NCBI GenBank assembly: GCA_963743865.1
Contig: CAVURG010000006.1
Location: forward strand, 2,689,638-2,753,637
DNA: 64,000 nt
Source of the DNA: an uncultured delta proteobacterium
GTDB lineage: Bacteria > Desulfobacterota > Binatia > Binatales > Binataceae
Direction: 5' to 3'
The translations under genes and the position numbers were made by a program. Of this stretch, positions 52,643 to 64,000 are shown one piece after another. The notes under the pieces are model-generated. The model did not search any database, was not told where the DNA came from, and saw nothing but the letters and a program-made list of their open reading frames with translations. Each line of letters begins with the position of its first letter. The first letter of the stretch is position 1.

Positions 52643-53158
52643 ATGAGTACTGAACGCCAGGCAGACTTTTACGAAGCGGAACTGCCGCAGGCGTCGCGCG
52701 AGCTGGCCAAGCTGCGCGCCTCGAGCGACTACGTGGCGCCGTTCGAGATCGTGCGGCGGCGCGTGATCGACGACGTCAACGAAGGCAGGATGACGGTCGA
52801 TGCGACGGTCGTAATCCGAATCGGCAACGTCGAGGAAACCGAAGCGGCGTCGGGCGTCGGCGTGGTGCACGCGCTCGACGTGGCGCTGCGCAAGGCGCTG
52901 CTGAAATATTTTCCATACCTCGAGCCGGTGCGCGTGATCGAAACCTACCAGCATGCGACCGGCGACTCGACCGAGGCGGACGTGGTATCGGTGAAGAAAT
53001 TTTCCGACGGCCAACTGCTGTGGACGACGCTGGCCAAGTCGTCGAATACGGTCGAAGCGGGATGGGTGTCGCTGCTCGACGGTTACGAGTGGCGAATCAT
53101 CAACGAGAACGCGAGGCGGCACCGGATGAATGCGAATCCGAGGTTGTCGAGGCGCTGA
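52643..53158 (+). CDS. stand-alone LeuA-allosteric/dimerisation-domain-like protein
   Basis: Two tandem beta-alpha units (ATVVIRIGNVEETEAASGVGVVHALDVALRKAL; EADVVSVKKFSDG...TVEAGWVSLL) resembling the LeuA C-terminal regulatory fold. Low-confidence family call. Confidence 0.3.
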   Translation: MSTERQADFYEAELPQASRELAKLRASSDYVAPFEIVRRRVIDDVNEGRMTVDATVVIRIGNVEETEAASGVGVVHALDVALRKALLKYFPYLEPVRVIETYQHATGDSTEADVVSVKKFSDGQLLWTTLAKSSNTVEAGWVSLLDGYEWRIINENARRHRMNANPRLSRR

Positions 53159-53182
53159 CCCCCAAGGGGCGAGGCGATCGCG

Positions 53183-53668
53183 ATGAGCACGGACGAGCGA
53201 GCAGCCGGAAGCGGCAAGGCGGCGGCGGGCAAACTGGCGATTTTGTACGACGGTTCGTGCGAGATGTGCCGCGCGAGTGTGGACGGAATCATGCAATTCG
53301 ACAACTCGGGAGCGATCGAACCGCTCGATCTTCATCGCGAAGAAGTGCGCGGGCAGTTTCCCGGGTTGACGCTGGAGAATCTGCTCGAGGAATTGCACGC
53401 GGTGGACGAGAGCGGACGGGTGTACCGCGGGGCGCGGGCGATCAACGAAATACTGCGGCGGCAGCGCGGGCTGCGGGGCTACCTCGCGTACCTGTGGTAC
53501 CTCCCGCCGTACGCGTGGCTCGCGGATCGGCAGTACAAGCGGATCGCGGCGTCGCGATACGCGACGCGATGCGCGCGGCAAGTTGAAGGGGCAGGCGGCG
53601 GCGCAGCGCTAGCGGGGCGCGGCTTGTTCGAGATCGCGAGCGCAGCGGTAAGCTGTACGCTCGCATTC
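53183..53668 (+). CDS. DUF393 (DCC-type thiol-disulfide oxidoreductase) domain ORF, in frame with downstream cysS and no intervening stop
   Basis: LAILYDGSCEMCR...CxxC motif; about 110-aa DUF393 domain plus linker. Confidence 0.5.
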
Positions 53669-55100
53669 GTGAAACCATTTTACATTTTCAATTCGCTGAC
53701 GCGCGCGGTCGAGGAATTCCAGGCGCTCAAGCCGCCCGAGGTGACGCTGTATTCATGCGGGCCGACGGTCTATCTGCCGCAGCATCTTGGGAATCTGCGC
53801 GCGTACGTGTTCGTGGACAGTCTGCGCCGGGCGCTGGAGTTCAACGGCTACCGGGTGCGCCACGTGATGAACGTGACCGACGTCGGCCACATGACGGGGG
53901 ACGTGGACGACGGCGAGGACAAAGTCGAGAAAACCGCACGGGCGCAAGGGAAATCGCCACTGGAAGTCGCGAACTATTATTTCGAGCAGTTTCGGCGCGA
54001 TTGCGCCGCGCTCAATCTCGAGCCGCCGCAGGTGTGGTCGCGCGCGACCGATCATATCGGCGACATGATCGCGCTTAGCGCGAGAATTATCGACGCGGGA
54101 TTCGCCTACGTCACGAAAAGCGGGGTGTACTTCGACGTCGAGAAGTATCGCGGGAACAACCGGGCCGGGCGGCTCTCGCGCCAGAGCCTCGACGAGCAGA
54201 ACGCCGACGCAGCGCCTGGAGCATTCGGCCGACAAGCATAGCCCGCACGATTTCGCGCTGTGGGTGCTCGACCAGCCGGGCCATCTGATGCAATGGGAGA
54301 GTCCGTGGGGGCGCGGCTATCCGGGCTGGCATATCGAGTGCTCGGCGATGGCGATGAAATACCTGGGCGAGACTATCGACATCCACACCGGCGGCATCGA
54401 TCACATCCCGGTGCATCACGAGAACGAGATCGCGCAATCCGAAAGCGCGACGCACAAGCCGTTCGCGCGGTACTTCGTGCACAACGCGTTCCTGGTCGGC
54501 AAAGAGGGAGCCAAGATCAGCAAGAGCGCGGGCAAGTTCCCGCTGCTGAGCGATCTTGGGGCGGCGGGGATCGATCCGCAGGCGTTTCGGATTTTCTGTT
54601 ACGGCGCGAAGTACCGTTCCGAAATTGCATTCAACGACGACGCGATCCGCGCGGCGCAGAGCAATCTCGATTATTTTCGGGAGTTCGCGCGCAGCGTGCC
54701 GGACGACGCGGCGGCGGACGGCGCCGAGGCGGCGGGATGGGCGGCGGAGTACTACGAGCGCTTCCACGACGCGATCAACAACGATCTGAACACGCCGCAG
54801 GCGATCGCGGTGGCTCTGGAACTGATCGCGGAAGCATACCGGCGCAAGGATTTCCGGGCGTGGCCGACACTGCGGGCGCTCGACGCGGTGCTGGGACTCG
54901 ACCTGGAAAAGCATCGCGAGTCGGCGCACGCGGGCTCGATCGCGGCGGACGTGCAGCAATTGATCGACAATCGAACGGCGGCGCGCAAGGCGAAAGACTT
55001 CAACCTCGCCGATGAACTGCGCAAGGAAATCGAGCGGCGCGGCTACGAGGTCAAGGATAATCGCGACGGCACGGCGAGCTATCAGCAGCGTCGCGCCTGA
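53669..55100 (+). CDS. cysS: cysteine--tRNA ligase, frameshifted near 54240
   Basis: GTG-start MKPFYIFNSLTR matches the CysS N-terminus; HIGH-type HLGN; KMSKS as KISKS; CysS-type C-terminal helical domain in ORF 54264..55100. Confidence 0.8.
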
Positions 55101-55210
55101 ACGGTTGCGAGCGAGCGGGATTTCGGGCCGCAGGTTTGCCTTGAATGGTTGCGCGAAAGTCTCTTAGAATCGCGCGTTGACGAGTCAAATCGTCCGCCCA
55201 GAAGGAAGCG

Positions 55211-56078
55211 ATGGGGATTGAGTTAAAGAAGTTCGACACCAGGCTGCAGGCCGAAGGACCCGAGGTACGCCATCTCGATCCGGCTGCGGCGCCGTTCTAC
55301 CTGCCGATTGGCGACGAAGTGGAAATCTTCAGCGCCGCGTACAAAGCCCGCCTGCCCGTGCTGCTCAAAGGACCGACCGGGTGCGGCAAGACGCGCTTCG
55401 TCGAGCACATGGCGCATCAACTGTCCTCGCTGGCCGACGGCCCCAATGAGCTGATAACCGTTGCGTGCCACGAGGATCTGACCGGCAGCGACCTGGTCGG
55501 CCGCTTCCTGATCCAGGCCGACGAGACGGTGTGGGTTGACGGTCCGCTGACGCAGGCGGTGCGGCGCGGCGCGATTTGCTACCTGGACGAGGTGGTCGAG
55601 GCGCGCAAGGACACGACGGTGCTGATCCATCCGCTGTCGGATCATCGGCGGATTCTGCCGATCGAAAAGCGCGGCGAGACGATCGTGGCGCACGACGGAT
55701 TTCTGCTGGTGATTTCGTACAATCCCGGCTACCAGAGCATCCAGAAAAACCTGAAGCATTCGACGCGCCAGCGCTTCGTGACGATCGAGTTCACGTATCC
55801 GCCGGCGGACAAGGAAGTCGAGATTATCGCGCACGAGGCGGGGGTCGATCAGGATATGGCGCATGCAGCTCGCGGTGCTGGGCGAGAAGGTGCGCCATCT
55901 GAAGGCGTCGGGATTGGAGGAGGGCGTTTCGACGCGCCTGTTGATCTACGCCGGGGAGCTGATCCAGCAGGGAATCGCGCCACGGCGCGCCGCGACCGTC
56001 GCGGTCACGTGGTCGCTGACCGACGAAGCCGACAGCAAGCGCGCGATCGACGAAGTGGTAAAGGCGATCTTTCCATAA
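55211..56078 (+). CDS. MoxR-type AAA+ ATPase of the CbbQ/NirQ/NorQ/GvpN family, frameshifted near 55860
   Basis: Walker [12 protein letters not shown], Walker B CYLDEV, sensor region; C-terminal 70 aa are in ORF 55863..56078. Confidence 0.75.
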
Positions 56079-56139
56079 GTTGCGAGCAAGATTCCCGAAT
56101 CGACGCGAATGACGCCAACAAATTCAGCGAGGTCGCGCA

Positions 56140-57175
56140 AATGACAGTCTCCGCAAAGTTCAAGGTGATTCTGGTTTCGGTTTCAGCCGCGACGCTGGTC
56201 GCCGGCGCATCCGCGATGGCGCAAGATCTGCAAGGGCTCCAGTCACAGACCGGACCGAGGCTGGATTTTCCGGCCGGGCTGGCGACCGACGGCCGCGCGG
56301 TTTACGTTTCCAACAGCCGCAACAATACGATCGAGGCGATCGACGCGGCGTCGAAATCGCTCCGAATCGTCGCCGGCAAGCTTTTCCAGCAAGGCAGCAA
56401 CGACGGCACCGGCGATTCGGCGCGCTTCAACAGCCCCGACGGGATGACGATCTCCGGACAGGATCTCTATCTTTGCGACACCGCCAATTCCGACATCCGC
56501 AAGATCGATATCGGCAGCGCGACGGTCACCACGATTGCGGGGACGGCGAATATCGCGGGCACCGAGGACGGCACCGGCTCGGCGGCGCATTTCAACCTGC
56601 CGACGCAGATCACGACCGACGGCGCCTCGCTATACGTAGCCGACAGCGGCAACAACACGATCCGGCGCATCACGCTCGCCGACATGAAGGTCAAGACGAT
56701 CGGAGGCCAGCCGGGGACGACGGGCAAGGCCGAGGGTGGTCCGGACAAGTCACAGTTCACCGGACCGCGTGGAATCGCGGTGGACAAGAAGGCCATCTAC
56801 GTCGCGGATACCGGCAATGAGGTGATCCGCAAGATCGATATCTCGACGCTGCAGACCAGCACGCTTGCGGGCACCGGCGAGCAAGGGGACAAAGACGGTC
56901 CCGCGCTGGAAGCGCAGTTCAACAATCCCGGCGCGCTGTGCACCGACGGAACGATGCTCTACGTGATGGACGCGGACAATCATGCGATTCGCAAGATCGA
57001 CCTCACCGCCAACACCGTAACCAAACTGACGCTGGTCAACGGCCATATCGGTTCGGGCTGCGCGCTCAGCAGCGACGGCAAGCAACTGTACTTCTCCGAC
57101 ACCACGGAAAACGCCGTGGAGGTCGTCGATACGACCAGCGGCAACTTCACCGCGCTCTATCCGCCGGGGCAGTAG
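56140..57175 (+). CDS. secreted NHL-repeat beta-propeller protein
   Basis: Signal peptide [28 protein letters not shown]; six or more NHL-like repeats ([42 protein letters not shown]). Confidence 0.7.
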
Positions 57176-57199
57176 GGCACGCGCGGCGGGCATCGCGTC

Positions 57200-58247
57200 T
57201 TGATCGATCTGCGCAGCGACACGGTTACGTTGCCGACGCCCGAGATGCGCGAGGCGATCGCGCGCGCCGAGCTGGGTGACGACGTTTACGGCGAAGACCC
57301 GAGCGTGAACCGGCTCGAAGCGATGGCGGCGGCGCTGATGGGGAAAGCGGCGGCGATGCTCGTGCCGAGCGGCACGATGGGCAATCTGGCCGCGATGCTG
57401 ACGCATTGCGCGCGCGGCACCAAGGCGATAGTCGGCTCGCAGTCGCACACGAATCTTTACGAGGCGGGCGGCGCGTCGGCTCTGGGAGGCATCGTGCTAA
57501 CCGCAGTCACCAACACCGACGACGGCGAGCTCGACCCCGGACGCGCTCGCGCGCGAGCTTGGGACGCCGGCCGACGTTCATTTCGCGCAGCCGTCGCTGG
57601 TCGTGATCGAGAACACTCACAACCAATGCGGCGGCGCGCCGATCAAGCTATCGCACATGGCGGAAGTATCCGACGCGGCGCATCGGCGAAAAATCCGGCT
57701 TCATCTCGACGGCGCGCGAATCTTCAACGCAGCGATTGCGCTGGAAACGACGCCGAGGGAAATCGCGAGCGGCGCGGACACGGTATCGTTTTGCCTGTCG
57801 AAGGGGCTTGGATGTCCGGTGGGCTCGATTCTGTGCGGGAGCCGCGAATTTATCGCCGGTGCGCGCCGGACCCGCAAAGTGCTGGGCGGAGGAATGCGGC
57901 AGGCGGGAATAATCGCGGCGGCAGGAATCGTCGCGCTGACCACGATGGTCGATCGGCTGGCCGAGGATCATCAGAATGCGCGCGCGCTGGCGCAGGGACT
58001 TGCGCTGGTCGCGGGACTGAACGTGCGGGCGGTTAAGAATCGGACCAACATGGTCGTATTCGACGTGGACGGCGACGCGGAAGCATCGCGGCGTTTCGCG
58101 GCGGCGATGCAACAGCGGGGGGTGCTGATATCGCCGCGCGAGGCGACATCTTTCCGCGCCGTGACGCATCATGGGATTTCGCGCGCCGACGTCGATCGGG
58201 CGGTCGCAGCGGCCGCACAAGCCGCCGGCGAAGTCTTCGGCGACTGA
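57200..58247 (+). CDS. ltaE: low-specificity L-threonine aldolase, frameshifted near 57540
   Basis: MIDLRSDTVTLPT N-terminus; PLP fold; second half in ORF 57603..58247. Confidence 0.75.
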
Positions 58248-58264
58248 ATCGTTCGATCGCGCGC

Positions 58265-59063
58265 ATGGGAAATCACGAGATGGATTCGCTCGATTCGCTG
58301 TTCTCTCTGCGCGGGCGTCGCGGACTGGTAACCGGCGCGTCGTCCGGGTTGGGAGTGGAATGCGCAAGGGCGCTGGCGATTGCGGGCGCCGACGTTGCAC
58401 TGGTCGCGCGGCGCAAAGAACGCGTCACACAAATTGCGGCCGAGCTGGCGAAGACGCACGGCGTCAAGGCGATCGGAATCGGCGCCGACGTGACGCGCGA
58501 GGACGACCTCGATCGCGCTGATGGCGGAGACATCGGCCGCGCTTGGCGACGTGGATATCCTGGTGAACAACGCGGGCGTGTCGCCGACCGGCCGCGCCGA
58601 GAATTTCAAGCGTGAAGCATGGGACGAAGCGATCGCGGTGAATCTGACCGCGCCGATGATGCTGGCACAGCGCGTCGCGCGCCGGCTCATCGAGACCGGA
58701 CAGCCGGGCCGAATCATCAACATGGTTTCGATCTACGCGTCGGTGGCGAGTTCGGTGTACCGGCTGTCGGCATACGCGGCGACCAAGGCGGCGTTGGCGA
58801 ATTTGACGCGTCAGCTGGCGGTCGAATGGGCCGGCTATGGAATTCTGGTCAATGCGATCGCGCCGGGATGGATTCCCACCGAGGCCACCGAGGGCGGAAT
58901 CGCGAAGCCCGCGAACAAGGAACGGATGGAGGCGTTTACGCCGATGAAGCGGCTGGGGCTTCCGCACGAGATTCGCGGCGCGGTGATCTTCCTTGCCAGC
59001 GCGGCTTCAAGCTACGTTACGGGTTCGGTAGTTTCGGTGGACGGCGGATACCAGGCGTGGTGA
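58265..59063 (+). CDS. SDR-family oxidoreductase, frameshifted near 58510
   Basis: TGASSGLG cofactor motif (58265..58615); NNAG, Y-x3-K (YAATK) and the C-terminus in ORF 58521..59063. Confidence 0.75.
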
Positions 59064-59140
59064 AAGCGGCGCGGGTCCGATCGCAAAGCTGCAAGCCGCG
59101 CCGCAGCAATCTCCGGGCAGTCGTTAGATCAGGAGCGGGG

Positions 59141-60579
59141 ATGAACGGCACCGGGCTTCGGGCGCAACTTTTCCGGCGCAAGCCGGCGGCGGCCTTGATG
59201 GCGGAAGCCGCGGAGCACTCGGGCGGGCTCAAACGGGCTCTGGGAGCGCTCGATCTCACGCTGCTCGGGATAGGCGCGATCGTCGGTGCGGGAATTTTCG
59301 TGCTGACCGGCGTCGGCCGCGGCAAGATACGCCGGGCCGGCGATCGTGCTCTCGTTCGTGGTGTCGGGATTCGCGTGCGCGATGGCGGCGCTGTGCTACG
59401 CGGAGTTCGCGGCGATGATCCCGGTGGCGGGCAGCGCGTATTCATATTCGTACGCGACGATGGGCGAGCTGGTCGGCTGGATCATCGGATGGGACCTGGT
59501 GCTGGAGTACGCGGTCGCCGCGGCGGCGGTTGCGGTGGGATGGTCGGGGTACCTTACCGTCATCCTGCACGGCGTCGGGATTCATTTGCCGATCGCGATA
59601 ACGAATGCGCCCGGGTCGGCTCCCGGCGCGATCGTCAACCTGCCGGCGTTGCTGGTCGTGATGCTGATCACCTGGGTGCTGTACATCGGGATATCGGAAA
59701 GCGCGCGGATCAATTCGATCATCGTGGCGGTGAAGCTGATCGTGGTCGGCGCCGTGATCGTCGTCGGTGCGTTTTTCGTAAGGCCGGAGAACTGGAGTCC
59801 GTTCGCGCCGATGGGATGGAGCGGGAGTGATGAAAGGCGCGGCGGTGATCTTCTTCGCGTACATCGGGTTCGACGCGGTCTCGACGGCAGCCGAGGAAGT
59901 GATCGATCCGAAGCGCGACCTGCCGCTCGGCATCCTCGGTTCGCTGTTCGTCTGCACGGTGCTTTATATCCTGGTCGCGGGCGTGTTGACCGGGATGGTG
60001 CCGGCGCACCTGATCGACGTGAACGCGCCGCTGGCGTCGGCGTTCGTGCTGCGCGGGATGCATGCGTTGTCGGGATTTATCTCGCTGGGCGCGGTTGCGG
60101 GGCTGACCTCGGTGCTGCTGGTGATGATGCTCGGGCAGTCGCGGGTTTTTTTCGCCGTGTCGCGCGACGGCCTGCTGCCGCCAGCCTTCACCCGGATTCA
60201 TCCGAAGTATCGCACGCCGTACATACCGACCACGCTGACCGGAATCGGAGTCGGAATCGCGGCGGCGCTGCTGCCGATCCAGGAAATCGCGGAGCTGACG
60301 AATATCGGGACGCTGTTCGCGTTCGTGCTGGTATGCTTCGGCGTGTGGATCCTGCGCCACGCCGAGCCGGACTTGAAGCGCCCGTTCCGCACGCCGCTGG
60401 TGCCGCTGGTGCCGATTTTCGGCGTCGTTTTCTGCCTTTACCTGATGGCGAGTCTGCCGCTGGTTACGTGGATTCGTTTTTTCGTGTGGATGGCGATCGG
60501 GCTGGTTATCTATTTCAGTTACGGCCGCTTCCACAGCCGGGTGCAGAACAACGCTCAGTCGAGCGCAGGGGCCGCGTAG
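59141..60579 (+). CDS. APC-superfamily amino acid permease (CAT/YhdG-like), two frameshifts near 59330 and 59830
   Basis: ATG at 59141 after AGGAGCGGGG. GIGAIVGAGIFVLTG motif; 12-TM topology reconstructed across three frames. Confidence 0.7.
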
Positions 60580-60693
60580 GCCGGCGTCGGGCGAGGCCTG
60601 CAACGGCTAACGCGCTGCGTCGCCCGCAGTGCGCACGGATGCTGAAGGCCCTGCCCTGCGACGTAGGGGAGGATGCTCACGGGCAGCGGCACG

Positions 60694-61275
60694 CTATTGG
60701 CCGGAGCGATCGGCGGCCTTCTGCGCGGCTGCGGCGGCGGCGGAGGCGGCGGCGCGGGTCTGGGCGGCCTTTTCCATCGCGGCCTTGTGCTGCTCGCCGC
60801 GAGCGAGGTTCTGTTCATTTGCTTGGCGCCCGCGACGCCGAGGTCCTGCGATTCCCACTTGGGCTTCGCGACGGAGACCCATTGTCTTCCGTCAAGCGCG
60901 TAGGTGAAGACCAGGTACTTGAGCTTGCCGGTGGCGAGGCCCTTGGCTGTTCCCGGCTTGGCAGGGTCGTACTCGACGCCGCCGAGCTTGCAGCTCACGA
61001 CCAGATGATTATGCGGGCCGTAGGTCGGCAGGTACTCGAACTTTTGCTGCAAATCGATGTACAGCTGGCCCTTGGCCTTTTTTTCATCCTGCTCGACAAA
61101 GTAAGGCTCGGCGACATCGGAAAGTTTATCCTGGAGCGACTGCTGGAGGGCAGGCGAGAGGTCTTTCTGCGCGCGCGCGTGCTCGCAAGTCCATCGCATA
61201 TGCACGCGACGCATCGAGCGAAAACGAAAGCGCGGCCGCAAGGGCGACCGCGCTGAGAATCTTGAGATTTTTCAT
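60694..61275 (-). CDS. hypothetical secreted protein, two frameshifts
   Basis: Signal peptide MKNLKILSAVALAAALSFSLDASRAYA at 61275. Body (KDLSPALQQSLQDKL...YLVFTYALDGRQWVSVAKPKWESQDLG) is in frame 60555..61241. Ala-rich tail in 60694..60882. Confidence 0.4.
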
Positions 61276-62541
61276 GGCGTCCCGGCCACCATCATAGTGG
61301 ACGATTGACCGGGCGCAAATATTTACGGGCTGAGCTACTCGCCGAGCCCGCGGCCGAACGACAGCGACCTGCGACTGCCATTGGTCGCCGAAGGCGAGGA
61401 TCAGCACCTGCTGATTGATGTGCGCGTCCTTGGTCAGCGATTTCATCGAGCCGCCACCGGCGGTAGCCAGCACTTTGTAGGCCGCCTGCGTCTGCCGGTA
61501 GAACTCCGGCAACGGCGAGATTTTCGGCGGCTCCTCGCGATGCACCTTGAGCCAGAACTCGCGCTCGAAGCGCTCGTGCTCCTCGGCCGCCACGTCCACC
61601 GTGTTGAAGGTGCCGTTGTTGGTCTTGAACTGCCGAATCAGCGCGAGCAGCGGACCGAAGTCCTCCTTGTGCGGGGGAGAATCGCCGACCAGCACGACCA
61701 CCTTTTTGGCGTACGGCTTCCAGTCCATCTTGTTTATCGCCGTCTCGCACGCGCCAAACGTATCCTCTTCCCATTCGCCGCCACCCATCGCCTGGATGCC
61801 GTTGAGGAAGTCGCTGAGCTTTTGCGGCGACAGCGTCAGCGGCTGGACATTCATCTTCTCGCCCTTGCCGCCGAACACGATTATTCCGATTCGCGCGATC
61901 GGCACCAGCCGGTGAATCGACTGCACCAGCTGCTCCATCTTGGCCTTGACGTCGTCGATGATCAGTTTCATCGAGCCGGTCCCGTCAATGACCAGCACCA
62001 CGTCCAGTCCCTTGCGCCGCAGCTCACCGATGAACCCGCCGAAGCCCGAGCCGATGCCGTGACCGTAGCCCGAGCCCATGCCGCCGCCACGGCCGATGCC
62101 GATTCCGCCGCCGCCGGCTGCGCGCACGTAGTCACTGGCGAGTCCAACGGCCTGCGAGGTGTCCACCGCGGTCGGCGCTTCCATCTGCTGCTGCGCCGTG
62201 TCGGGCATCGGCACTTCGGGCATGTCGAGATCCTGCATCTCGTTGCCGCCACCGCCGCCGCCGCCCGCTTCCAGGTTCACCATGATCAACTCGCGCCCGC
62301 GCTGCTCGTGCACCGTGATGATCAGGAAAAGCAGGGCAAGCACGTGAATGGCGACCGACAGCGGAAAGGGGCCGATCAGCAGACCGAGCGCATCTTTGAT
62401 CTTCTGAAGACGGGTCGCGTCGGCTTCGTCTTCTTCGCGGCGCGTCTCGGCCGCGAGCTCTCGTTTGCCGATAATGCGGTAGAAGATGAAAGCGACGACG
62501 AACGTCGAGAGGACAAGCAAAATAACAATTGCTGCGATCAT
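61126..62541 (-). CDS. membrane-anchored von Willebrand factor A domain protein (BatA-like)
   Basis: Two N-terminal TM helices, Gly-rich spacer, MIDAS motif VIDGTGSM. The C-terminal about 50 aa of the ORF actually belong to the next gene's signal peptide. Confidence 0.65.
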   Translation of the reverse strand: MIAAIVILLVLSTFVVAFIFYRIIGKRELAAETRREEDEADATRLQKIKDALGLLIGPFPLSVAIHVLALLFLIITVHEQRGRELIMVNLEAGGGGGGGNEMQDLDMPEVPMPDTAQQQMEAPTAVDTSQAVGLASDYVRAAGGGGIGIGRGGGMGSGYGHGIGSGFGGFIGELRRKGLDVVLVIDGTGSMKLIIDDVKAKMEQLVQSIHRLVPIARIGIIVFGGKGEKMNVQPLTLSPQKLSDFLNGIQAMGGGEWEEDTFGACETAINKMDWKPYAKKVVVLVGDSPPHKEDFGPLLALIRQFKTNNGTFNTVDVAAEEHERFEREFWLKVHREEPPKISPLPEFYRQTQAAYKVLATAGGGSMKSLTKDAHINQQVLILAFGDQWQSQVAVVRPRARRVAQPVNICARSIVHYDGGRDAMKNLKILSAVALAAALSFSLDASRAYAMDLRARARAERPLACPPAVAPG

Positions 62542-62661
62542 ATAAAAACGTGCTCCCCGCTTGGGCCACGCTTGGCGCGGCCGAGGCCGAGATCCTCATT
62601 CACTAGATTTAAAGCCGCGCGATCGTCGCGGCGACGCGTGAGCCGTCCGAAAATCAAATTC

Positions 62662-63114
62662 CTACGCTCCGCCTCCCGGCGCTCCGGCAGCGACGCCCCC
62701 GGGAGGGAGAGAAGACACGGCGATAGCGATAGCCTCCGCGCCGGCCGACTTGGCCATATCCAGAATACGAACCATATCACCGAGTATAACCTTTGGGTCG
62801 CCCTGGAAAATCACAATTTTGTCGGTCGAATTTGCAAGCGCGTCATGAAGCTGGGGCACCAACTCGGGCTCGGTGACCTGCTTGTCGCCCAAATAAATCA
62901 GATGGTCGGCGGTGTACGTCACGATGATGCCCTTGGGCTTTTCGTTCGCCGCGGGCGCAGCTTCAGCTTTGGGCAAATCGACGTGGGCCGCGGACTCGAT
63001 CGTCACCGCGGTCGTCACCATAAAGATGATCAGCAGGACGAGAAAGATATCGGTCAACGGGGTGATGTTGATATCGGCGAACACCCCGCCGCCTTTGTTT
63101 CTGCTCATTGCCAT
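62662..63114 (-). CDS. exbD: biopolymer transport protein ExbD/TolR (paralog 2)
   Basis: MAMSRNKGGGVFADINITPLTDIFLVLLIIFMVTT. ATG at 63114 chosen over the upstream TTG of the ORF track. Confidence 0.75.
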   Translation of the reverse strand: MAMSRNKGGGVFADINITPLTDIFLVLLIIFMVTTAVTIESAAHVDLPKAEAAPAANEKPKGIIVTYTADHLIYLGDKQVTEPELVPQLHDALANSTDKIVIFQGDPKVILGDMVRILDMAKSAGAEAIAIAVSSLPPGGVAAGAPGGGA

Positions 63115-63170
63115 GGAGCAAATACCTCTGCGTGTATCGATGCTCAGGTCAGCCACCGGGGCCGGCCCGA

Positions 63171-63621
63171 TCAACCTCCACCACCTGAGGAGTTGGCTAG
63201 TTGCGCACCGGTAACCCGCTTGGCCGCGATTGCAATTTGTTCGGCGCCGGCGGCCTTGGCGATATTCAGGATTCGCACCATGTCGCCGAGCAGCACTTTG
63301 CGATCACCCTGGAACACGACGATCTTCTGGTCCACTTTGCTCAGCGCCTCGCCCAGGGCTGGAGCGGAGTTCGCGCTCGGGAACGTCCTTGGAGTTCACG
63401 AACAGCTCGTGCTGGGCGGTATACGTCACGATGACGCCCTTGTTCTCGGGCGCGGTATTGGTCGCGGTGGGCAGATCGACGTGGGCGGCAGATTCGATCG
63501 TGACAGAGGTCGTCACCATGAAGATGATGAGCAGAACCAGAAAGATATCGGTGAGCGGCGTGATATTGATGTCGGCAAAAACGCCGCCACCGCCGCCCTG
63601 ATGTGGTCCGCTAATTGCCAC
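63171..63621 (-). CDS. exbD: biopolymer transport protein ExbD/TolR (paralog 1), frameshifted near 63365
   Basis: GTG start at 63621; VFADINITPLTDIF. C-terminus (KVDQKIVVFQGDRKVLLGDMVRILNIAKAAGAEQIAIA) is in another frame. About 85% nt identity to paralog 2. Confidence 0.7.
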
Positions 63622-64000
63622 GCGCCTGTCTCCCCTGGAGTGTAGCGTCGATCAGACGGTCGTCGTTGATGTGCTGGATGGCGCTGATGTTCTCAATCTT
63701 GACCGAGAAATAGTTGTAGAAGATAACCGCGATGATCGCGACGGCGAGTCCGAGCGCGGTTGAAATCAAGGCTTCCGAAATACCAGCGGCGACGACCGAG
63801 AAACCGCCGGTGCCCATGATTGCCATCGATTGGAACGCCACGAGGATACCAACGACCGTGCCGAACAGCCCGATGAACGGCGCCGATGCGCCGGCGGTCG
63901 CGAGCACCCAGATGTAGCGCTTGAACTCGAGGCCTTCCTGGTAACGGCGCTCGTCGTCGAGCTCGAGCAGATGATCCCTGTCCATCGTCTGCGAACCCGC
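63611..64000 (-). CDS. exbB: MotA/TolQ/ExbB proton-channel protein (5' partial, runs off window)
   Basis: TM2/TM3 region LATAGASAPFIGLFGTVVGI; the ORF is open upstream to the window end. Confidence 0.7.
   Translation of the reverse strand, partial: AGSQTMDRDHLLELDDERRYQEGLEFKRYIWVLATAGASAPFIGLFGTVVGILVAFQSMAIMGTGGFSVVAAGISEALISTALGLAVAIIAVIFYNYFSVKIENISAIQHINDDRLIDATLQGRQARGN

Follow-up and report, generated by a model that had tools for sequence, protein, structure and literature searches.

An operon at one end of a 64,000-nucleotide stretch of Binataceae DNA probably encodes a dedicated Ton/Tol-like motor driven by the proton-motive force, together with its own transducer, which is not a TonB. 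The stretch (hereafter the window) comes from an uncultured delta proteobacterium (assembly GCA_963743865.1, contig CAVURG010000006.1, positions 2,689,638 to 2,753,637 of the forward strand). On its minus strand lie, in order, exbB (truncated at the window end), exbD1, exbD2, a gene for a membrane protein with a VWA domain and a gene for a small secreted protein. To our knowledge, Ton and Tol are the only well-understood routes by which inner-membrane energy reaches the periplasm and outer membrane of diderm bacteria. VWA-headed transducers would form a third class.

The motor genes and the VWA protein

Coordinates were taken from a three-frame translation of the minus strand of positions 60400-64000, and domains were assigned with Pfam and NCBIfam. 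A first-pass annotation made from the letters alone had described five genes on one strand with small gaps or overlaps, and both the Pfam domains and the measured spacing bear this out. The genes exbB and exbD1 overlap by 11 nucleotides (nt), and the next gaps are 56, 120 and 59 nt. We looked for promoter- and terminator-like sites on the coding strand between the five genes and saw none. The locus comprises the following features:

63611..64000, minus strand: exbB/tolQ-like motor subunit; the window contains the 3' end of the gene with its last 129 codons, and ~84 codons before them are past the window end
63171..63621, minus strand: exbD1 (tolR-like), with Pfam ExbD and a GTG start that overlaps the exbB stop; frame broken in the window
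62662..63114, minus strand: exbD2 (tolR-like), with Pfam ExbD; intact, 150 amino acids (aa)
61335..62541, minus strand: predicted TonB-like VWA transducer, ~401 aa once the extra T at 61363 is removed
62470..62538, minus strand: extra N-terminal hydrophobic helix of the VWA protein, residues 2-24 (from sequence, paralogue comparison and the AlphaFold2 (AF2) helix)
62308..62382, minus strand: S-x3-H anchor helix of the VWA protein (TonB/TolA-type motif, homologue conservation)
62269..62289, minus strand: 'ELIMVNLE' motif of the VWA protein, candidate motor box (paralogue conservation; role by analogy with TonB/TolA)
62047..62268, minus strand: Gly-rich low-complexity linker of the VWA protein, residues ~92-165, predicted disordered
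61365..62010, minus strand: periplasmic VWA domain, with the D186-G-T188-G-S190 signature of the metal-ion-dependent adhesion site (MIDAS) type at 61972..61986 (Foldseek, homologue alignment)
60694..61275, minus strand: small protein, presumed secreted, 193 aa after frame correction, with a signal-peptide-like N-terminus

The motor genes show the features of ExbB/ExbD-TolQ/TolR 5:2 motors: MotA_ExbB and ExbD domains, an Asp in the ExbD helix and Thr-containing ExbB channel helices. Pfam MotA_ExbB matched exbB with an E value of 3.7e-28, and Pfam ExbD matched exbD1 (frame-corrected protein, E 7e-24) and exbD2 (E 2e-23). The membrane-helix Asp is kept in exbD1 ('PLTDIFLVLLIIFMV'). A relative (locus L001) has an intact ExbB of 213 aa, and the part of ExbB inside the window matches its residues 85-213 at 94.6% identity. 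Among solved structures, the L001 ExbB comes closest to E. coli ExbB (5sv0, E 7e-16) and to TolQ, and its GLFGTV and I-S-T-A channel motifs align with theirs. ExbD2 comes closest to the ExbD chains 7ajq_F and 6tyi_Y, with the helix Asp aligned, and also matches TolR structures. In NCBIfam the motor proteins score slightly higher for TolQ/TolR than for ExbB/ExbD. Because all of these scores are far below the equivalog cut-offs, the motor can be assigned to neither Ton nor Tol.

The two ExbD proteins are ~63% identical. Their genes had been described as about 85% identical at the nucleotide level, which is true only of the first ~120 nt (82-85%), where the membrane helix is encoded; overall, the two genes are 72% identical. 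In the window a Glu ('GISEAL', ~63770) aligns with E176 of E. coli ExbB, and in L001, a relative of 91% identity, an Ala ('GISAAL') does; the E176-equivalent residue is thus not conserved in this motor. In one species (L019, 5999-6988), a third exbD copy separates exbD2 from the VWA gene.

The VWA protein, in which Pfam VWA_2/VWA_4/VWA matched, consists of an extra N-terminal helix, a charged loop, an S-x3-H anchor helix, a motor-box-like motif, a Gly-rich linker and a VWA head. The extra helix (residues 2-24), which AF2 also models as a helix, is specific to the motor-linked Binataceae form (P0006 compared with P0082, P0091, P0099 and P0101). The anchor helix spans residues 54-78 (GPFPLSVAIHVLALLFLIITVH) and contains the motif S62-x3-H66-x6-L73-x2-T76, that is, a Ser followed by His at +4, Leu at +11 and Thr at +14. 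S62 and H66 are kept in at least 90% of 21 homologues, down to 26% identity, and are invariant in a set of 30 homologues. The SHLS motif is the means by which TonB and TolA bind their motors (PMC12204202), and the residue spacing of the VWA anchor helix mirrors it at the sequence level. When a 54-position profile of the helix region was compared with 177,635 PDB sequences, the top match was E. coli TonB (9ddo_F, E = 1.1), with its S16/H20 in register.

Seven residues past this helix lies 'ELIMVNLE', an alternating-hydrophobic motif that is conserved in all Binataceae paralogues; more distant VWA homologues have similar alternating hydrophobic patterns. It sits where the motor box of TonB/TolA (PMC12204202) would be and is, by analogy, a candidate strand for contacting ExbD. 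The linker that follows, with a run of seven Gly and GxG repeats, has an AF2 predicted local distance difference test (pLDDT) score below 50 over residues 85-164 (~80 residues). In contrast to this low score, the VWA head (residues ~166-400) is modelled with a pLDDT of ~90. Foldseek searches with the head model returned BatB (3ibs), ITIH1 (6fpy), Rpn10 and integrin I domains, with E values of 1e-9 to 1e-6 and ~15% identity. The D-x-T-x-S residues D186, T188 and S190 are invariant in the same sets of 21 and 30 homologues.

The first-pass annotation had read this gene as a membrane-anchored, Gly-rich VWA protein at 61126..62541 whose open reading frame (ORF) runs into the signal peptide of the next protein. 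The anchor helix, the Gly-rich linker and the VWA domain stand, but the end of the ORF does not. Compared with the three closest relatives, which lack the extra T at 61363, the 471-aa ORF is an indel artefact, and the true VWA gene ends near 61335.

Conservation of the linkage and the small secreted protein

We surveyed the 80 species-level Binataceae loci listed, and sampled other phyla through three protein look-ups. In ~50 of the 80 loci the order is the same: a lipoprotein gene on the opposite strand, then exbB, exbD1, exbD2, the VWA gene and the secreted-protein gene, then a permease gene on the opposite strand. Both exbD paralogues are kept throughout these ~50 species. A five-gene order that recurs in the genomes of ~50 distinct Binataceae species is far more than chance would produce. 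Its conservation in related genomes had been proposed as a check on the first reading. Homologues at 30-45% identity lie in the clusters exbB-exbD-VWA-TPR (TPR protein of 791 aa) and histidine kinase-LytTR regulator-VWA-exbB-exbD-TPR (711 aa). Among these distant homologues the gene order shifts, and the linkage between the VWA gene and the motor stays.

The lack of a TonB-like Pro-rich protein in the window, noted at first pass, was confirmed by a heuristic motif scan of the window, which turned up neither a TonB_C-like motif nor a genuine Pro-rich protein; the one Pro-rich stretch at the locus comes from reading off-frame. The region beyond the window end was read from syntenic relatives (for instance, L001) and not from the window's own contig. 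A tonB gene just past that end had been suggested as something to look for, and no TonB_C protein was found within 8-10 kb in the intact L001 or in the ~50 Binataceae species. The VWA protein itself was rejected as a canonical TonB, with no TonB_C match in Pfam or NCBIfam and a linker that is Gly-rich.

The secreted-protein gene lies exactly at 60694..61275, where it had been placed, and its product begins with a hydrophobic, signal-peptide-like segment (read by eye). It has 259 homologues, none with a Pfam domain, and all matches with a taxon name are Binatus or Binataceae; by this distribution of homologues, the protein is lineage-specific to Binataceae. Its AF2 model (pLDDT 82) comprises a helix, a four-stranded sheet and a long Ala-rich C-terminal helix. 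Compared with the PDB, the model gave no significant fold match.

Upstream of exbB, L001 and ~50 other Binataceae species have ~700 nt of non-coding sequence and then a small lipoprotein-like gene in divergent orientation. We do not accept the 224-aa gene that had been called upstream of the L001 exbB, since its sequence is not protein-like and the region is the conserved non-coding leader. This region (L001 7730-8316 and its equivalent in 52 relatives) contains a conserved promoter-like TTGACA-N17-tGCATT ~200 nt upstream of exbB and, ~35 nt ahead of the ribosome-binding site, a hairpin (GAGCGG...CCGCTC) that is almost invariant. We do not claim a structured leader RNA, as Rfam gave no match and the only fold that RNAalifold supports is a 5-bp hairpin that hardly varies and shows one compensatory change. 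Scans of the whole window for tRNAs and Rfam families found nothing.

Mechanism and alternative readings

From these features we infer how such a transducer would work. The ExbB pentamer would contain both divergent ExbD proteins as a heterodimer, and the S-x3-H helix of the VWA protein would dock outside the ExbB ring in the manner of TonB and TolA. The 'ELIMVNLE' strand would contact the periplasmic domains of ExbD, and the ~80-residue flexible Gly-rich linker would allow the head to reach across the periplasm. There, the VWA head would grip a partner through its metal-ion (MIDAS) site, and rotation of the motor would pull on, or remodel, the gripped partner. In Binataceae the most likely candidate for this partner or adaptor is the small secreted protein of the same operon; in distant relatives, a large TPR protein occupies that position.

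Several observations weigh against a dedicated motor with its own VWA transducer. The TonB match of the short helix, at E = 1.1, is not statistically significant alone. The single-chain AF2 model continued the helix through 'ELIMVNLE' and drew no strand. Conservation of the MIDAS site is unclear for its fourth and fifth ligands, as the 'GD' before SPP varies. Relatives fused to FHA or anti-sigma domains have the same helix far from any exbBD, so the helix motif is not always paired with motor genes in cis. Finally, the motor could also serve a canonical TonB encoded at another place in the genome. As for the cellular role, the first-pass annotation had suggested energised gliding, surface assembly or uptake. 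We found nothing specific to these, and regulators near other family members point at least equally to signalling.

The relatives that bear on signalling include a second Binataceae form of the VWA protein, encoded at other loci outside the window. In this form (~465 aa), the first helix and the loop are replaced by a cytoplasmic zinc-finger anti-sigma domain with the signature C...H-x3-C-x2-C. The best Pfam match was zf-HC2 in all four sequences tested, with a top score of 28.7 bits; one sequence scored above the gathering score. The anti-sigma-VWA gene overlaps the stop of a gene for an extracytoplasmic function (ECF) sigma factor (Sigma70_ECF/r4_2), and is usually followed by a third SHLS-VWA paralogue and an Hpt gene. 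A unit of ECF sigma, anti-sigma-VWA, a third SHLS-VWA paralogue and an Hpt gene was found in ~28 of the 80 species loci listed (for instance, L002 7117-11657 and L003 7186-12072).

We compared the two forms from ~8 residues before the S-x3-H helix to the C-terminus. Within the same genome, the motor-linked and anti-sigma forms are on average 92.9% identical; orthologues between genomes are 90.9% and 87.9% identical, and all cross-form pairs 88.0%. For one lineage, identity is 91.7% between the two forms of the same genome, and 83.6% and 81.4% to the nearest orthologues. Identity within a genome thus exceeds that between orthologues of different species, which indicates that the two forms are under concerted evolution and so would share partners. 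All paralogues keep GPFPLS-x3-H...ELIMVNLE-G7.

Loci L018 and L052, both contigs of the metagenome-assembled genome (MAG) SMAG_U11458, are reciprocal chimeras of the motor and anti-sigma loci, joined within the shared VWA part. One has exbB-exbD-exbD-VWA with the anti-sigma locus downstream, and the other has sigma-antisigma-VWA with the secreted-protein gene and permease. They arose either through recombination between the VWA genes, which are ~90% identical, or through misassembly of short reads. In a divergent Binataceae subclade (L043, L056, L062 and L071), the anti-sigma-VWA gene is followed immediately by a two-helix, motor-type VWA paralogue, and the two forms may act as a pair. In a set of more distant homologues (P0241, P0245, P0259, P0264 and P0265), a cytoplasmic FHA domain is fused to the S-x3-H helix and VWA head, with a C-terminal extension. 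The single FHA-VWA locus examined (L087/L088, a marine contig) has no exbBD nearby.

These relatives raise the alternative that the system is mainly a signalling one, in which VWA heads sense a periplasmic or outer-membrane ligand and the motor, by pulling on the ligand-bound anti-sigma twin, releases the ECF sigma factor. The motor-linked VWA protein would work with the anti-sigma paralogue, or compete with it, for motor and ligand. We consider this unlikely as the main function, although much of the evidence above is consistent with it: the zf-HC2 anti-sigma paralogue that overlaps the ECF sigma gene, the helix, motor-box motif, linker and VWA head shared between the forms at such high identity within a genome, the motif string kept in all paralogues, the histidine kinase/LytTR pair adjoining distant motor-linked homologues and the cytoplasmic FHA domains of other relatives. 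However, the anti-sigma loci lie elsewhere in the genome and not in the window, and the identity of the paralogues could reflect gene conversion with no functional coupling. The L018/L052 chimeras indicate that recombination or misassembly happens between the copies, and the neighbouring regulators may merely control expression.

To judge by the anti-sigma twin, the output may be at least partly transcriptional. A more novel reading, though not a likely one, is that one ExbB-ExbD1-ExbD2 motor of Binataceae serves several interchangeable VWA transducers, one of them an anti-sigma factor, so that a pull on the ligand-bound anti-sigma factor, powered by the proton-motive force, would switch on the ECF sigma factor. 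If true, this would be a mechanically proof-read form of transmembrane signalling, with the anti-sigma factor itself as the TonB-like component. We found no report in the literature of a VWA anti-sigma factor whose TonB-type anchor also occurs in a twin encoded with a motor. The near-identical anti-sigma paralogue also has a practical use, as the output of its sigma factor could read out motor-dependent activity in a reporter assay. Two further handles are the small conserved secreted protein, as a candidate partner, and the invariant D-x-T-x-S, as a mutable site.

Less probable again is that exbB-exbD-exbD serve a canonical TonB encoded elsewhere and that the VWA protein is an unrelated BatA/BatB-like passenger of the operon. 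Many bacteria encode tonB away from exbBD, and a BatB of Bacteroides is among the top fold matches of the VWA head. Set against this, the linkage between VWA gene and motor holds across deep divergence with altered gene order, and S-x3-H is kept although a plain membrane anchor would need only hydrophobicity. A BatA-type identity had been put forward for a profile check; the BatB model NF047506 scored only 16.6 bits against a cut-off of 350, and the operon has no MoxR, DUF58 or BatC-E neighbours. We therefore reject BatB as the identity of this protein, and retain a dedicated motor with a VWA transducer as the preferred reading.

The reading frames of the locus require a separate comment. Four indels were seen only in the window when it was compared with its three closest relatives (93-96% nucleotide identity): an added C at 63358, an added T at 61363, an added G at 61184 and a missing A at 60814. 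The first sits in a C-run and changes the frame of exbD1 at ~63359 (tblastn of the intact L001 protein), and the last two break the secreted-protein gene twice. In the relatives the genes are intact, with a VWA protein of 401-408 aa and a separate secreted protein of 193-197 aa. More broadly, ~120 VWA homologues, named Candidatus Binatus or Binataceae, are 400-410 aa long. The closest relatives are soil and peat MAGs from long and short reads.

Frame changes extend beyond the locus. Over positions 53000-64000, almost all genes are split by single-base frame changes that their intact orthologues lack, a pattern that resembles an unpolished long-read assembly. With tblastn of L001 proteins against the window, we found such changes also in cysS (53669-55097), cbbQ (55211-56075), an aldolase gene (57200-58244), a short-chain dehydrogenase/reductase gene (58280-59060) and, twice, an amino-acid permease gene (59141-60555), at a density of ~1 indel per kb. 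Because an essential gene such as cysS is also affected, the indels are almost certainly assembly errors, and ORF-based annotation of this window would yield false fusions and truncations. That the locus is instead decaying, with real frameshifts making pseudogenes of exbD1, the VWA gene and the secreted-protein gene, would fit four frame-breaking indels in 3.3 kb unique to the window among its closest relatives, but is highly improbable given the equal density of frame breaks in cysS and other housekeeping genes across 53-64 kb, the position of two of the four indels in short homopolymer runs, the origin of the relatives in long-read MAG projects and the 79-92% protein identity to the intact L001 that persists between the indels.

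Comparison with known systems

Two candidate identities were set aside on gene content and profile scores. For the Zorya anti-phage motor, PADLOC gave only a weak generic ZorA match for ExbB (E 0.0028, 14.6 bits), and the remaining proteins had no match. A CbbQ/VWA chaperone pair was rejected since the CbbQ-like AAA+ gene is 5 kb away, on the other strand and in a separate unit. At 55211-57175 on the plus strand, this gene for a CbbQ/NorQ-type AAA+ ATPase (AAA_5; CbbQ_C in a relative) is followed directly by one for a secreted NHL-repeat protein. The usual VWA partner of such an ATPase, of the CbbO/NorD type, is not adjacent, and the sole nearby VWA gene is the periplasmic one on the other strand.

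Like BatA and BatB, the VWA protein has N-terminal membrane helices and a VWA domain, and BatB is among the top fold matches. The VWA protein differs from them in sequence (~15% identity) and in the absence of MoxR, DUF58 and BatC-E genes from the window operon. The ECF289 anti-sigma factors (ZAS) carry DUF3520 and a VWA domain, are YfbK-like and have no reported link to a motor (PMC7826278). The Binataceae paralogue resembles them as an ECF sigma/zf-HC2 anti-sigma pair with a periplasmic VWA domain, but, unlike them, shares a TonB-type helix and a motor-box motif with its motor-encoded twin.

With the TolQ-TolR-TolA system the locus shares the slightly better TolQ/TolR scores of its motor proteins. 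TolA also has an SHLS helix followed by a Gly run. Unlike the Tol system, the locus has no tolB, pal or cpoB nearby and the VWA protein has no TolA domain III. The Ton system has the same 5:2-type motor gene set with the ExbD Asp, and its transducer follows the same layout of helix, motor-box-like motif, long flexible region and globular head; the S-x3-H helix has TonB as its best PDB match. The window locus departs from Ton in having two ExbD paralogues, no TonB_C domain and no Pro-rich region. In place of the TonB head stands a MIDAS-type VWA head, and partner capture would rely on metal-ion coordination, not on beta-strand addition to a TonB box.

A literature search on ExbB/TolQ with VWA proteins returned one relevant paper (PMC12204202), and a search on Ton systems of Binatota found nothing. 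That study proposed in silico two families that bear on the locus. In the trans-pore-helix vWA family, tolQ occurs alone, with no tolR/exbD, and the VWA helix has a proton-binding Asp and lacks SHLS (PMC12204202). This family does not accommodate the window locus, which has two exbD genes and a VWA helix with S/H and no Asp. The second family comprises the SHLS-helix vWA 'force transducers' (Mol Biol Evol 2025; seed from Tichowtungia aerotolerans), in which an inner-membrane SHLS helix is joined to a vWA head by a disordered linker that contains a motor box; their genes adjoin tolQ and paired tolR-like genes (PMC12204202). They were reported from Proteobacteria, Planctomycetes, Verrucomicrobia, Bacteroidetes and Rhodothermaeota, with function unknown and no phenotypes (PMC12204202). 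A TPR gene is frequent beside them in the Planctomycetes-Verrucomicrobia-Chlamydiae (PVC) group, although it is not strictly defining, and AlphaFold 3 complexes for homologous architectures led to the same motor-transducer model (PMC12204202).

The first-pass annotation had described an ExbB/ExbD motor with a VWA protein in the place of TonB as an unusual combination. The anchor helix, the conserved linkage and the lack of a tonB gene beyond the window end in relatives support the combination, which is not undescribed given this earlier proposal. That the arrangement might be common and already annotated as a known Bat/TonB cluster is borne out in part: it had been described (PMC12204202), although not as a Bat/TonB cluster.

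The window locus differs from the published transducers in some respects: the Binataceae operon has no TPR gene and has the lineage-specific 193-aa secreted protein there instead, and the VWA protein has an extra N-terminal helix and a linker that is Gly-rich rather than Pro-rich. The likenesses are an S/H-motif helix, a predicted disordered linker with a candidate motor box and a C-terminal VWA fold, encoded directly downstream of one tolQ/exbB and two divergent tolR/exbD genes, and a TPR neighbour in the distant homologues of the window protein. Because it has every defining feature testable here, the locus is, judged by architecture and synteny, a new member of the proposed vWA force transducer kind. 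It comes from a phylum not listed in PMC12204202 and extends the class to Binatota, an abundant uncultured phylum of soil.

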